Assembly: GCA_013360395.1 (NCBI GenBank)
Contig: JABWBQ010000012.1
Span: 2,191-66,190 of the forward strand
DNA length: 64,000 nucleotides
DNA from: Flavobacteriales bacterium
GTDB lineage: Bacteria; Bacteroidota; Bacteroidia; Flavobacteriales_F; PHOS-HE28
Direction: 5' to 3'
Part shown: positions 13,045 through 60,300 of the stretch, piece by piece
Numbering within the stretch: position 1 is the stretch's first letter
How the letters are laid out: each line of letters begins with the position of its first letter
The notes under the pieces: model-generated
Database searches by the model: none
What the model saw: only the letters and a program-made list of their open reading frames with translations
What the model was told of the DNA's origin: nothing
Position numbers and translations under genes: made by a program

Positions 13045-13062
13045 CACCGCGTTCTTTCCATC

Positions 13063-13203
13063 GCTTATCCAGAAAGGCAGAGGGACTGGCCCTGTGAAGC
13101 CTTGGCAACCTTCGTCCCGCCGAAGTCCGTGAAAGCGGACGCAGGCGGACGTCCGACGATAGGTGCTAAATCCAGCTCCGGATGTTTCCGGGGAAAGATG
13201 AGC
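13063..13203 (+). promoter_or_regulatory. SAM-I (S-box) riboswitch aptamer
   Basis: GCTTATCCAGAAAGGCAGAGGGACTGGCCCTGTGAAGCCTTGGCAACC...GGTGCTAAATCCAG...GAAAGATGAGC; P1 GCTTATC/GATGAGC; upstream of methionine synthase. Confidence 0.95.
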
Positions 13204-13239
13204 CGTGATCAGGTCGCGATCCTCCTTCGGGAATAGTGC

Positions 13240-13270
13240 AGCCTCATCCGGAACATCGGGTGGGGCTTTT
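13240..13270 (+). terminator. Riboswitch intrinsic terminator (expression platform)
   Basis: GCCTCATCCG...CGGGTGGGGC followed by TTTT. Its 5' arm (CTCATC) can alternatively pair with the P1 3' strand GATGAG as an antiterminator. Confidence 0.8.
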
Positions 13271-13281
13271 GTCTTTCTGGG

Positions 13282-13384
13282 ATGCGGTGAAGGTGGTGAG
13301 GGTGGAAAGAATGGTGAGAAAGCACCGGGCAAGCCGTGGCTCTCTTTCTCACCACTCTCACCCTTTTCACCCTTCTCACCGCAT
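13282..13384. repeat. Imperfect inverted repeat built of 9-mer GGTGA-type units (four per arm)
   Basis: Left arm ATGC-GGTGAAGGT-GGTGAGGGT-GGAAAGAAT-GGTGAGAAAG (13282-13322). Right arm CTTTCTCACC-ACTCTCACC-CTTTTCACC-CTTCTCACC-GCAT (13344-13384). Confidence 0.85.
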
Positions 13385-13416: not shown

Positions 13417-14418
13417 ATGACCACCCTCGAACGCATCGCCCAAGAACGCATCCTCGTCCTCGACGGGGCCATGGGCACCATGATCCAACGCCTCGGCCTG
13501 AAGGAGGAGGACTTCCACCCCAAAGGCATGGAGGACCACAAGGTCCTGCTCAAGGGCAACAACGAACTGCTCTCGCTCTCGCGGCCCGACGCGATCCGCA
13601 AGATCCACGAGCAATACCTGGAGGCCGGTGCCGACATCATCGAGACCAACACCTTTAGCGCCACCAGCATCGCCCAGGCCGAGCACGAATGCAGCCACCT
13701 GGCCCGCGCGATGAACCTGGCCTCCGTGCGCCTGGCCAAGGAAGCCTGCGCCAAGTACACCGCGATGGATCCCGCCAAACCGCGCTTCGTGGCCGGTGCC
13801 ATCGGGCCCATGAACAAGACCGCCTCGCTCAGCCCCGATGTGAACGACCCCGGCTTCCGCGCCGTCACCTTCGACCAGCTCGTGGCCGCCTACAAGGAAC
13901 AGGTGGAGGCCATGCTGGATGCCGACGTGGACATCCTGCTCGTGGAGACCATCTTCGACACGCTCAACGCCAAGGCCGCCTTCTACGCCATCGACGAGGT
14001 GTTCGAGGCACGGGGCAAGCGCGTGCCGCTCATGTGCAGCGTCACCATCACCGATGCCAGCGGGCGCACGCTCAGCGGCCAGACCATCGAGGCCTTCCTC
14101 ATCAGCATGCAGCATGTGCCGCTCTTCAGCATGGGCCTCAACTGCGCGCTGGGCGCGGCCCAGATGCGTCCCTACCTGGAAGTGATCGCCGAGCAGAGCC
14201 CCTGCCGCGTGAGCATCTACCCCAACGCCGGCCTGCCCGACCAGATGGGTGAATACCGCGAAACGCCCGATGTCACCGCGCGCCTCGTGGGCGAGTTCAT
14301 GGCCAACGGCTGGGTGAACATCGTGGGCGGGTGTTGCGGGACCACGCCGGAGCACATTGCAGCGCTGGCGGCGGAAGCGAAGAAGCATCAACCTCGTAAG
14401 GCTCCGGTGCTGGTATGA
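13417..14418 (+). CDS. metH: Methionine synthase N-terminal part (homocysteine S-methyltransferase domain)
   Basis: ILVLDGAMGTMIQ, GADIIETNTF, ETIFDTLN, GLNCALG and GGCCGTTPEHI motifs; ATG at 13417. Confidence 0.95.
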   Translation: MTTLERIAQERILVLDGAMGTMIQRLGLKEEDFHPKGMEDHKVLLKGNNELLSLSRPDAIRKIHEQYLEAGADIIETNTFSATSIAQAEHECSHLARAMNLASVRLAKEACAKYTAMDPAKPRFVAGAIGPMNKTASLSPDVNDPGFRAVTFDQLVAAYKEQVEAMLDADVDILLVETIFDTLNAKAAFYAIDEVFEARGKRVPLMCSVTITDASGRTLSGQTIEAFLISMQHVPLFSMGLNCALGAAQMRPYLEVIAEQSPCRVSIYPNAGLPDQMGEYRETPDVTARLVGEFMANGWVNIVGGCCGTTPEHIAALAAEAKKHQPRKAPVLV

Positions 14419-14457
14419 GTGCATCACCACAGAGGCACAGAGGGCACAGAGGAGGGG

Positions 14458-14850
14458 ATGACGCACAACGAAGTATCAGGCAAGGTCATCAGGGCGGCCA
14501 TTGCCGTCCATCGGGAGTTGGGTCCCGGTCTTCTGGAGAGCGTGTATCAAGTCTGCTTGATGGCCGAATTGAAGAGCATGGGCTTGCACGTGGAAGAACA
14601 AGTCGCGGTTCCCATTGTGTACCGTGGGGAACGGTTGGCGAACAGCCTTCGGATCGATCTGCTCGTGGAGGACCGGGTCGTCGTGGGGATCAAGGCCGTC
14701 GAGGATCTTCATCCCATTCATATGGCCCAACAGCTGACCTATCTGAGACTGACCAAAAAGAAGCTCGGCTTGCTCATCAACTTCAACACGACCAAGCTCG
14801 TTGACGGGATCGAGCGTGTCATGAACGGATACTTGGATGAAGGGGAGTAA
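14458..14850 (+). CDS. GxxExxY protein (PD-(D/E)XK-like nuclease family)
   Basis: VHRELGPGLLESVY (GxxExxY), RIDLLVE..VVVGIK, AQ..TYL and GLLINF motifs; 130 aa from ATG 14458. Confidence 0.92.
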   Translation: MTHNEVSGKVIRAAIAVHRELGPGLLESVYQVCLMAELKSMGLHVEEQVAVPIVYRGERLANSLRIDLLVEDRVVVGIKAVEDLHPIHMAQQLTYLRLTKKKLGLLINFNTTKLVDGIERVMNGYLDEGE

Positions 14851-14900
14851 TGCGAAATACTTCACCACAGAGGCACAGAGGACACGAAGTGAGTCCAGTT

Positions 14901-15040
14901 GCATTTCTCTGTGCCCTCTGTGTCTCTGTGGTGAGCCCCGCCATCCCGTCGTCGCATTTCTCTGTGCCCTCTGTGCCTCTGTGGTGAGCCCCGCCATCCC
15001 GTCGTCGCATTTCTCTGTGCCCTCTGTGCCTCTGTGGTGA
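14901..15040. repeat. 53-bp tandem repeat, about 2.6 copies
   Basis: GCATTTCTCTGTGCCCTCTGTGYCTCTGTGGTGAGCCCCGCCATCCCGTCGTC starting at 14901, 14954 and (partially) 15007. Confidence 0.95.
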
Positions 15041-15053
15041 ACCCGCATTTCCA

Positions 15054-17735
<2,682 letters not shown>

Positions 17736-57304: not shown

Positions 57305-60300
57305 ATGAGACACAGGCTCCCCTCCCTGATCGCCGCGGCCCTGGTCACCGTCGCCGCGGCGGCGCAGACACAGATCTCCGTGATACCCGTGATCACGCCG
57401 CCCTACAGCACCCACCTCAGCGACTACCAGGGCGCGCTGATCGTGAACCTCACCAACACCACCAACGAGCAGGTGGCCCTGAAGCTCATCGGCACCCTCA
57501 CCGGCGACAACGGCTTCAGCGGCCACACGCGCAGCACCTACGCGCCCCCCGCACCGGTGGTGCTGGGCCCGCTGGAGACCCGCGTGCTGCAGGCCAATGC
57601 GCAGGCGATGGACTTCATCGACCCCAACAACTTCGAGGTCAACGCGCCGCAGCAGGTGCAGAACGCCGTGATCCAGACGGGCCTCCTGCCGGAGGGCAAC
57701 TACGAGTTCTGCGTGCAGGCCGTGGACTACCAAACGGGCGAGCCCTTGTCCGCCGAAGCGCCCGTGGGCTGCCTCTTCTTCCCCATCACCTACGCGCAGC
57801 CGCCGGTGCTCACCTTCCCCTGGTGCGACGGCACCGTGGGCGATCCCTGGCCGGTGTTCACCTGGAGCCCGCCGGTGGGCGCCATCAACATGGCCAACGT
57901 GCGCTACGACCTCTACGTGCTGGAGGTGCTGCCCGGGCAGAACCTCGTGAACGCGATGATGCTGGCCATGGACGGCGTGGCCGGCAACCCTATGGTGCGC
58001 ACGGACCTGTTGGTGCCTTCCTATCCGTGGCAGCCCTACGATCCGCCGTTGAAGGAGAATACCCTCTATGCCGTGGGCGTGGTGGCACGCGATGTAACGG
58101 GAAGCGTCCTCTTCGAGAACCGGGGGCGGAGCGAGGTGTGCACCTTCACCATACAGCCGCCGACCCCGACCACCGGCACGGGCGCCTCCGTTACCGGTCA
58201 GGGAATCAGCACGGTTGTTCCGGCGATCACCTTGCCCATCGGGCCGTTGCCGGACACGCATGTGAAGGGGCGGTTGCTGTACCGCTTCAAGGAAAGCACG
58301 CGCCCAGGCTGTGATCCGGCGGGGCCACTATCGATCGCGAACATCGGTGGGGTCATCCTCTCACCCAATGCCGCGGTAGGCCTCGCTGGCCTTCCGCCAT
58401 CGGCCGGGGGCGCAACTGGCCAAGGCACCAACACGGCGATGGCGGGTCCGTTGATCAACGCCATGGGCGCAGGCGCGGCGGGCGGCACCCTTTCCATGGG
58501 GGCGTTCATGGGCGCCTTCAACCAGTCCGGCGGCTCCTCGAGCTACAGCTATGGCATGGGCGAAAGCCTGATCGCGTCGGTGGGCATGGAGCTGATCAGC
58601 CTGTTCCCGCAGGACAAGTGGAAGGACCCCTTCCCCGTGAGCACCACCGGAGCGAAGCCCTTGAAGAACATCCCCATCAAACTGGTGGAGCATGTGGTGC
58701 TCACCAATGCCACCATTCACTACGGCCAAGGCCAGACCGTGGAGCGCGACCGTTTGATCCTCGGCGTGGATTCCCTGCCTTTCATGGGCGGTGCACTCAC
58801 CGGCCAGCAGGGTGATGCGGTGGAATGGCATTACGGCAAGGTGGTGGCCACGGGCACCACCGATGGCAACGGCAACTTCGACCTTTTCTACCACCAGCCC
58901 AGCTACACGGGCATCCACTTGGGCAGCTCGTCGGCGGGGATCAACAGCCTGATCATCGACCCCATCAGCCAGGAGCCGTTGATGCTGGGCTCCATCGATG
59001 CCCTCAACACTTCCAAGGTGCTGATGATCGAGGTGGCCTCGCCCTATTACTGCAGCCCCGACCTGGAGATCTACGCACAGCCCGGCGATGTGGTGGAACT
59101 ACCGGAACAGGCGTGCTACGTGCGCAGCTACGACCTGAAGGTGAGCGTTCGGCAGGGCCAATGCGCCATGCAGATGGGCGGCACCGGCTCGCCCATGGGG
59201 AACGTGCAGGTGAGCGTGATGCGCCCGGCGGACCATACGCCAACGGAGATCCCGGATGACGAAGGGCAGCACCTGGACCAAAGCATGCCGATGCCCGGCC
59301 TGGGCGATGTGCCGCTGGTGGCCCGGTGCGCCACCAAGGCCAGTGATGGCAGCGCGCTCTTCCACAACATGGTGGTGCACAGTGACGCCGCTCCCGACGA
59401 TTATTTGCTGGACTGCCGCACCAGCACTGAGCGCGGGCTTTACCACTACCTGTCGTGGAACAAGACCTGGCCCAACTGGTACGGCAAGCCGCCCGTGGTG
59501 CTTCACGGCGCACGCAGCCCGCTGAACAGCCAGCTGGGCGACATCCCCGTGTACGAGGTGCCCGTGGACCTGGTGCCGCTGCAGCCCCGCGTGATGGGCC
59601 GCGTGATGGTCTCCGCCACCGAGCCGCTGCCCAATGCGCTGGTCACCTTGAGGCTGGCCTACGATCCCGCGCCGGGCAACGTGTCCCCGGTGATCGTGGG
59701 CTGCGACCAGAACACCGGGACCGCCGACTTCACCTACTTGGAATACACACGGCTCACGGACCCGGACGGCTTCTTCGATTTCACCGGCATCCTGGTGAAG
59801 GGCTCCAGCGACGGCATGTTCTTCCTGGGCCCGCATGCCAGCATCCTGGTTTCCAAGCCGGGCTACTGGCCTGCCGTACGCCCTTTGGCCGGCGAACCGC
59901 CCGGTGTGCCGCCCGGGCAGGTGAACAACAGCAACCCCGCCAGCCCCAAAGTGGACCTGAAGATGGGCCTGCAGTGGGACATGACCAGCGGCATCCTGAT
60001 GAAACCCGTGGGCTGGGTGAAGGGCTTGATCCAGGATGAAGAGGGCCGGCCCGTGCGCTGCGATGTGCAGGTGGGCGATGGACCGTGGGGCCGGTCGGAG
60101 TTGATGATGGAAGTGGTGGGCACCACCGGCGGCGGTCAGGCGCCACCAAGCGGGAACACGAATGCGCCGCTGGTCCAGATGGGGGACCCGATCATTCCGT
60201 GGTTGTTCCAAGTGCCCGCTGCGGGCGGTGGGCAGAACGTGCAACCGGTGCTGCCGCAGGGGCAAACCCAGACCCAGGCGCCGTTGCTTGGGGCCGGCGG

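Follow-up and report, generated by a model that had tools for sequence, protein, structure and literature searches.

What is a small gene with a nuclease fold doing between the two halves of metH, and do the repeats that bracket it belong to it? The question is raised by a stretch of 64,000 nucleotides (nt) from a Flavobacteriales bacterium (assembly GCA_013360395.1, contig JABWBQ010000012.1, positions 2,191 to 66,190), here called the window and numbered from its first letter, in which an open reading frame (ORF) of the GxxExxY family lies between an N-terminal and a C-terminal half of metH, bracketed by arms built of CACAGAG units. The genome that contains the window (G000; 3.68 Mb, 66.7% guanine plus cytosine, or GC; the window is on its contig C90) was considered together with its genus, sampled as 41 genomes. 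The ORF and its arms, referred to below as the cassette, are one copy of a common type of selfish gene cassette that has apparently not been described before. Its nearest described counterpart is the ORF-bearing intervening sequence (IVS) of 23S ribosomal RNA (rRNA), both having a stem-bounded ORF with tandem repeats upstream of its start, and the reading favored here, held with about as much doubt as belief, is that the window's cassette is a selfish element of the 23S rRNA IVS type, bounded by a stem and sitting in an operon spacer.

That the GxxExxY ORF is placed between the metH halves with CACAGAG arms on both sides was seen by reading the sequence and by repeat search, and agrees with an earlier annotation made from the letters alone (the sequence-only reading). 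The left arm begins 5 nt after the N-half stop codon (14416-14418), the last inverted arm ends 13 nt ahead of the C-half start at ATG 15054, and the GC fraction is lower in the cassette (0.54) than around it (0.64-0.69). The upstream 28-mer, TCACCACAGAGGCACAGAGGGCACAGAG, does have three CACAGAG cores as had been described, whereas its supposed downstream repetition is a degenerate second direct arm that matches over 24 nt at 96%, with two exact cores and CACGAAG as the third. Three inverted copies follow at 14907-14934 (27/28 complementary), 14960-14987 (28/28) and 15013-15040 (28/28), one in each of three tandem 53-nt units, the second and third of which are 96% and 79% identical to the first. 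The GGAGG thought to be supplied by the left repeat is indeed adjacent to it and 2 nt ahead of ATG 14458, but shares with the arm only the arm's final base (14451-14455). A strict pattern for the CACAGAG arm has 12 matches in the window's genome and its reversed control has none, so the pattern is not there by chance.

The same arrangement recurs across the genus, in which 99 GxxExxY profile matches were found and 86 were analyzed, two full-length matches (G021:C339 and G014:C193) and 11 fragments below 100 bits being left out. Nearly every one of these genes has a triad of 8-9-nt units directly upstream and inverted triads downstream. The units come in several flavors, namely CACAGAG, CGCAGAG, CGCAAAG, CGCAACG, CGCGACG, CGCCAAG, C(A/G)CAGATG, CACGGATG and ACAGGAT, and in the flanks that were read across the genus the purine-rich arm is consistently on the 5' side of the ORF. 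Flanking was scored as the best ungapped inverted repeat between the 150 nt upstream and the 250 nt downstream of each gene, with 400 random genes of the window's genome as control; 74/86 GxxExxY genes lie above the 95th control percentile and 65/86 above the 99th, with a median score of 20.5 as compared to 8.5 for the controls. By their outer flanks the 86 genes occupy 42 distinct sites, and each flavor is found at several sites (CACAGAG at 5). With one representative per site and flavor, and pairs taken from different sites, protein identity is 52.9% for the same flavor and 40.7% for different flavors, a gap that was reached in 0/2000 permutations. In 19 of 37 cases the closest relative from a different site shares the flavor, and among the remaining cases most differ by one base per unit. 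Flavor thus follows protein clade across sites, from which it follows that arms and ORF travel together: they are inherited and relocated as one unit, as the sequence-only reading had supposed when it proposed comparing gene clades with their flanking repeats.

Two other interpretations of these data were rejected. A profile of the CACAGAG arm, searched against the window's genome, finds no such arm near the other three GxxExxY genes, and the idea that gene and repeat have no link was considered on this account and dropped, since those genes carry arms of other flavors. The idea that the units of a site had all been rewritten in concert was set aside because same-site proteins are 30-53% identical where the flavors differ sharply, and these are therefore independent colonizations. 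Identity between genes of different sites does not exceed 81%, and accordingly no recent jump of a gene is seen. Two identical cassettes with identical flanks do lie in opposite orientation on one contig (G007:C1:23456-23806 and 58475-58825), and are a segmental duplication or an assembly artifact rather than a transposition. In another genome (G011:C9:53482-53657) a 40-residue GxxExxY remnant of 23.7 bits adjoins CACGGATG arms and looks like a cassette in decay.

The protein encoded in the window scores well over the curated cut-offs of TIGR04256 (146.2 bits; cut-off 35) and PF13366 PDDEXK_3 (142.9 bits; cut-off 22), the latter a family which a published list enters, where it is named there, as being of unknown function and multiply transferred (PMC3424549). 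Its name-giving motif is G24-L-L-E27-S-V-Y30, with G24, E27 and Y30 invariant in the 75-78 genus sequences compared; among 78 sequences the invariant residues are G22, G24, E27, Y30, D67, G104, N108 and F109, and K79 is kept in 77. An AlphaFold2 (AF2) model, built on an alignment of 75 sequences (A1) and having a predicted local distance difference test (pLDDT) value of 93.9, gave best structural matches that are mostly PD-(D/E)XK nuclease domains, including BpuSI (Z 8.1; root-mean-square deviation 3.2, 95 aligned), Cas4 SSO0001 (Z 7.8), 3ijm (Z 7.5) and Hjc (Z 6.7), with 4ic1 as the top Foldseek match (E 1.9e-3). Profile scores and fold matches are in accord with the TIGR04256 and PD-(D/E)XK-like assignments made earlier from the sequence; the subfamily cannot be named, since the Z values are tied and of middling size. 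Searched by sequence against solved structures, this protein gave no match at E up to 1, and no PADLOC or PHROGs family matches it.

The family has the catalytic D...(D/E)xK arrangement of PD-(D/E)XK enzymes, and the window's copy departs from it. Residue 77 is Glu in 61, Asp in 16 and Gly in 1 of the 78 sequences, and the sole Gly is that of the window's copy, in which D67 and K79 are present and codon 77 reads GGG (14686-14688; E77G); the G008 ortholog has Glu at this position. To judge from these residues, the nuclease of the window's copy is probably inactive. GxxExxY proteins of the genus are under purifying selection, the ratio of nonsynonymous to synonymous substitution (dN/dS) being 0.04-0.17 in 9 of 10 ortholog pairs, with the tenth pair saturated. 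The G000 and G008 orthologs are 85% identical in protein, with dN/dS of 0.089. Between the same two genomes the arms are identical at 31/31 and 27/28 positions, the left arm falling in a stretch of 31 identical nt, whereas the proportion of synonymous differences (pS) in the ORF is 0.54. It was also observed that synonymous divergence (dS) between G000 and G008 is 0.97 in the cassette gene and 0.30-0.41 in the flanking metH halves, a two- to threefold difference that reflects either weaker codon constraint in the cassette gene or copies that are not strictly orthologous.

The arms are also found without a gene. A CACAGAG-arm profile detects 28 arms in the window's genome, of which the cassette accounts for 5 and 15 other loci for 23 (8 complete hairpins and 7 single arms, with 2 of the 23 arms only at E about 1), and nearly all of the other loci are short spacers between co-directional genes. 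A single plus-strand arm at C38:15237 was considered as a further cassette and rejected, because ordinary accessory genes follow it. A CACAGAG hairpin on contig C44 is absent from 11 of 12 aligned relatives, whose spacers measure 10-24 nt, and the twelfth relative, G044, has a hairpin of another flavor in the same spot; at this one site, therefore, hairpins have been gained and lost on their own, and no target-site duplication is visible there in the alignment with the relatives. Strict arm patterns are present in 23/41 genomes for CACAGAG, 23/41 for CGCAGAG and 26/41 for CACGGATG, with reversed controls near zero, and bursts in single genomes amount to 31 (G024), 38 (G007) and 45 (G012) arms. 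Strict CACAGAG matches are next to a GxxExxY gene in 8 of 109 cases in the genus (5 in G000, 2 in G008 and 1 in G019). Long arrays, of at least 10 units of the TTCTCACC type, lie at or near contig ends of the window's genome (for example C4:1778, C39:19391, C76:98, C118:16439 and C135:100); such arrays probably break the assembly, and the arm copy numbers are for that reason underestimates.

A layout of the same kind is found around another family of small genes. Seven four-helix-bundle genes (TIGR02436, the family to which rRNA IVS ORFs belong) are present in the window's genome, and short-unit arrays, read by eye, flank 7/7 of them; the inverted-repeat score is at least 12.5 in 5/7, in windows slightly larger than those used for GxxExxY genes, and the units are not of the same sequence as in GxxExxY cassettes. 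A transposase of the type associated with repetitive extragenic palindromic (REP) sequences, the REP-associated tyrosine transposase (RAYT), was considered as driver of the hairpins and rejected, since the one clear Y1_Tnp gene of the genome (C116:7061-7402) is without these arms. The suf operon (G000:C69:5500-6500) contains two four-helix-bundle cassettes and three CACAGAG arms or hairpins. There, about 65 nt of the upstream gene's 3' end is repeated past a four-helix-bundle cassette and is followed by an element resembling Flavo-1; it seems that the insert either duplicated the end of the gene or took its place, which may hint at the way in which cassettes integrate.

Cassettes are mostly oriented with their surroundings. 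Of 68 that have both neighboring genes called, 51 share the direction of both and 6 run antisense to both (22 vs 4 when counted by site), in keeping with the earlier proposal that they colonize intergenic gaps. No promoter-like or terminator-like site was found inside the window's cassette in a scan with the sigma-70 consensus, which may not fit this host. In the minimum-free-energy RNA fold predicted for 14405-15070 (z = -6.7; 0/20 shuffles as good), the left arm is joined to the last inverted arm in an outer stem around the ORF, and a second pairing links the inner direct arm to one of the other inverted arms; the outer stem, of about 30 base pairs, runs over the GGAGG and ATG and brings the metH N-half stop next to the C-half start. 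Two contigs from RNA libraries (two runs of one study) join the end of the metH N-half, the left arm and the ORF (X15, 14277-14577), and the ORF with the second arm (X16, 14589-14898); they are a weak hint of co-transcription, since such libraries can contain DNA. The window's genome has a gene for ribonuclease (RNase) III.

On the favored reading, the unit consists of a small ORF preceded by a purine-rich arm, itself made of three units of 8-9 nt, and followed by at least one inverted arm rich in pyrimidines. Placed in the sense orientation in a metH operon controlled by an S-adenosylmethionine (SAM) riboswitch, it is most likely co-transcribed with the operon, and in the transcript the outer arms are predicted to pair as a stem around the ORF and its start region. 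By analogy with the rRNA elements, RNase III would cut this outer stem, thereby insulating the host operon against the insert; this would account for the tolerance of such inserts within essential operons. Hairpins that share the flavor but have no gene would be derivative or independently spreading copies, and the window's own copy, with its probably inactive nuclease, would now be a passenger.

Several results weigh against this account. Insulation explains neither the movement of cassettes, nor the construction of the arms from tandem units, nor the stricter conservation of arms than of ORF. Purifying selection on a protein with a nuclease fold argues that the protein does something, and the insulation model assigns it no role. 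The RNA-library contigs cannot show RNA ends and may derive from DNA. Arm mismatches on the sense strand of the 68 cassettes show no excess of G.U (59) over A.C (67), in a test made noisy by register slips in the tandem units, and RNA pairing is therefore not favored over a DNA-level palindrome. Finally, bursts of at least 10 arms coincide with a flavor-matched gene in 11 of 15 genome-by-flavor cases, as compared to a base rate of 24%, a result that favors the nuclease-driven alternative.

The rival that best survives makes the protein the agent of movement. In this alternative, which is possible though doubtful, the GxxExxY protein would recognize its own arm units as a DNA palindrome, cruciform or hairpin and cut there; repair, in an equally tentative second step, would then copy the cassette to sites that are empty or hold only a hairpin, and hairpins without a gene would be non-autonomous derivatives resembling miniature inverted-repeat transposable elements (MITEs). 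The co-diversification of arm flavor with protein clade across sites, the conservation of arms beyond the synonymous sites of the ORF, and the purifying selection on a nuclease fold in which E27, D67 and K79 are kept and residue 77 is acidic in 77/78 sequences are all in its favor, as is the independent colonization of the same site by different clades, each with its own arms (sites 6, 7 and 15). Arm numbers speak both ways. They are higher in genomes that have a flavor-matched GxxExxY gene (raw Mann-Whitney p = 0.025, 0.0007 and 0.002 for the three flavors in the 41 genomes), in line with the matched bursts just mentioned, but the association is not significant after 6 matches per matched gene are subtracted for the gene's own arms (p = 0.31-0.42); moreover the tests were made without a tree, so that relatedness and tandem arrays are uncontrolled and related genomes are not independent.

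Other observations are harder to reconcile with a nuclease as the engine. G056, which is 99% complete, has 11 CACAGAG arms and a sole GxxExxY gene of the GCAACG type, and G044 has 6 CACAGAG arms and zero GxxExxY matches. The four-helix-bundle genes, which do not encode nucleases, share the design; the 81% ceiling on identity between sites shows no recent transposition; and the window's copy is without its catalytic acid, yet its genome has 23 further arms. At metH, ATGA(G) is present on both sides of the cassette, but selection on the stop and start codons would keep ATGA anyway, and no target-site duplication can be defined beyond it. None of these results shows the nuclease propagating the repeats in the manner of a RAYT, as the sequence-only reading suggested. 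Were a nuclease engine nevertheless at work, which we think rather improbable, GxxExxY nucleases would drive a class of mobile elements that is large, undescribed and transposase-free, each nuclease clade recognizing its own arm units. These might conceivably spread together with gene-less hairpins by way of operon spacers, loss of the nuclease leaving orphan hairpins behind, and, at a similarly speculative level, ORF-bearing rRNA IVSs could be a special case of the class and the split-metH junction one of its recurrent landing sites.

The junction itself bears on the remaining alternatives. All metH N-half matches in the genus are short open frames (271-405 amino acids, aa), metH being split in each genome with a match, and in other families of the class metH is of fused length (924-1268 aa) in 8 genomes and split in 6. 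Fourteen genus loci with both halves were compared, that of the window included. The junction is empty in three (G005, G003 and G001), where stop and start overlap as ATGA; an ORF-less spacer of 100-158 nt is found in four (G012, G014, G022 and G024), a GxxExxY cassette in two (G000 and G008), and an unrelated ORF in five (G009, G020, G016, G018 and G013). One inverted CACAGAG-type arm is left in the G022 spacer, and that of G024 has a hairpin of CGCAGAG flavor. The ORF in G009 is CdiI_3 immunity-like and the other four have no Pfam match; in G016, CACAGAG arms surround cargo that is unrelated, a Flavo-1-like element and a 146-aa ORF without a Pfam match. Empty, filled and other-cargo junctions together indicate that the metH split is older than the cassette, and that the junction is a hot spot with turnover of cargo. 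The comparison with relatives that the sequence-only reading had called for has thus turned up empty sites, and the repeats are enriched beside GxxExxY genes; neither of the two outcomes that this reading had named as refuting it was observed. An old insertion may have caused the metH split itself.

The unrelated cargo in G016 suggests a reading in which host-wide, REP-like hairpins spread alone and small genes merely land in them, with no functional tie. The insertion of gene-less hairpins by themselves would fit, as would the adjacency of only 8 of the 109 strict arm matches in the genus to a GxxExxY gene. This is nevertheless improbable: flavor follows protein clade across the 42 sites (0/2000 permutations), which random landing would not give, the flanking of 74/86 genes is far over the share of spacers that have hairpins, and the purine-rich arm is consistently 5' of the ORF. 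Least probable, and hardly to be credited, is a host function in which the cassette or its stem regulates the metH operon, for example the ratio of the MetH halves, for although the operon is riboswitch-controlled, the site is a coupled ATGA overlap in relatives and the predicted stem draws stop and start close, relatives are without the cassette or have unrelated cargo in the same spot, and the same type of cassette is found at 42 unrelated sites.

Some further features of these junctions were noted. A conserved element of about 95 nt precedes the unrelated ORF at the G009, G020, G016 and G018 junctions (not G013); it gives weak Flavo-1 matches in three loci (26.9-36.2 bits; gathering score 42), and the G018 copy was recognized by sequence likeness only. 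A clear Flavo-1 match (74.8 bits) is found in G035, of another family, elsewhere in the locus and upstream of the riboswitch. It may be that Flavo-1 marks a further type of cassette; in Flavobacterium transcriptomes its matches are reported in either orientation, and the portion of that report concerned with them offers no clue to function (PMC9723704). In G015, at least 1.5 kb of other genes replace the C-half after the metH N-half (locus L018, 2529-4026), the first a 269-aa ORF without a Pfam match and the next an ORF guessed by eye to be methyltransferase-like.

The metH operon of the window has a hairpin of its own, placed between the terminator-like stem (13240-13267) that follows the SAM riboswitch and the start of metH; its pyrimidine arm was also found by a generic triad detector (C90:15536). 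Given this hairpin, a long GTG-started ORF from 13336 overcalls the N-half, for which ATG 13417, in frame downstream of the hairpin, is the likely true start as judged from the sequence. The C-half comprises pterin-binding, B12-binding and activation domains, and by profile positions metH is broken exactly between the homocysteine and pterin-binding domains. Table 1 collects the features.

Table 1. Features of the metH locus and its cassette, in window coordinates.
Feature	Position	Strand	Evidence
SAM riboswitch, head of metH operon	13062..13204	+	Rfam RF00162, 82.7 bits (gathering score 44.4)
Gene-less hairpin of GGTGAGAA / TTCTCACC units, metH leader	13286..13381	+	Direct sequence reading
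metH N-half, homocysteine S-methyltransferase domain	13417..14418	+	PF02574 325.9 bits; NF007024 positions 4-338/1234
Left purine-rich arm, 28-mer with three CACAGAG units	14424..14451	+	Repeat search; 5 nt past stop
GxxExxY gene, 130 aa, PD-(D/E)XK fold	14458..14850	+	Stop codon 14848-14850; TIGR04256, PF13366
Degenerate second direct arm	14862..14889	+	24 nt at 96%; two exact cores, third CACGAAG
Three tandem 53-nt units, one inverted pyrimidine-rich arm each	14898..15056	+	Repeat search
metH C-half	15054..17735	+	NF007024 positions 345-1231/1234; PF00809, PF02607, PF02310, PF02965

A search of the literature, with supplements outside its reach, returned no account of GxxExxY cassettes that lie in operon spacers and have periodic inverted arms. 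This locus adds a genus-wide controlled count, co-variation of arm and protein, and an insertion hot spot in a split gene, as well as evidence for gain and loss of hairpins and a copy with a broken catalytic motif. GxxExxY (PF13366) and four-helix-bundle IVS proteins are among the commonest small bacterial proteins of unknown function, and at this locus and in this genus both are packaged with periodic inverted arms of their own into units that lie precisely in essential-operon spacers, undergo turnover between species and leave hairpins without a gene behind. This provides a testable frame for the function of PF13366 (cognate vs non-cognate arm, DNA vs RNA), for the origin of rRNA intervening sequences, and for a class of intergenic repeat that breaks assemblies and misleads gene callers.

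Four known systems invite comparison. In REP sequences and REPINs (hairpin-forming pairs of REPs) with their RAYTs, a protein gene lies between inverted short palindromic repeats that are also found gene-less in extragenic spacers, and several repeat flavors coexist per genome. The cassette gene is likewise flanked by an inverted repeat that is dispersed without a gene in the same genome, but it belongs to PF13366 and not to the Y1/HUH transposases (PF01797), its arm copies number in the tens and not the hundreds, and its arms are tandem 8-9-nt units. Free-standing homing endonuclease genes are small nuclease genes that are present or absent at one intergenic site among relatives; the cassette resembles them in being sense-oriented, without its own promoter and variably present at its site, and differs from them in its long inverted arms and gene-less derivatives. 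MITEs are short non-coding elements with terminal inverted repeats that are polymorphic among relatives and have coding relatives with the same ends. The gene-less hairpins, polymorphic between relatives and found beside coding cassettes with the same ends, are similar, although the cassette is without a transposase and without a defined target-site duplication.

The nearest counterpart is the rRNA IVS. In an account of the Coxiella burnetii IVS (23S rRNA helix 45), which also cites IVSs for Leptospira, Brucella and Xanthomonas, the sections on the element describe three heptamers in tandem immediately ahead of where the ORF starts, ends that form a stem, excision by RNase III at the first repeat, and an ORF reported as decaying (PMC4990558). 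The cassette is unlike it in lying between protein-coding genes and not in 23S rRNA (helix 25 or 45), in having an ORF for a PF13366 GxxExxY protein of PD-(D/E)XK fold and not an S23p or four-helix-bundle protein, in an excision by RNase III that is here proposed by analogy, and in the purifying selection on GxxExxY ORFs, as compared to the decay reported for that of Coxiella. What they share is a small ORF within stem-forming inverted repeats, tandem short repeats ahead of the ORF start, passive carriage, probable for the cassette, in a host transcript and a patchy distribution, and the IVS-type four-helix-bundle genes of the window's own genome have the same repeat-bounded layout.

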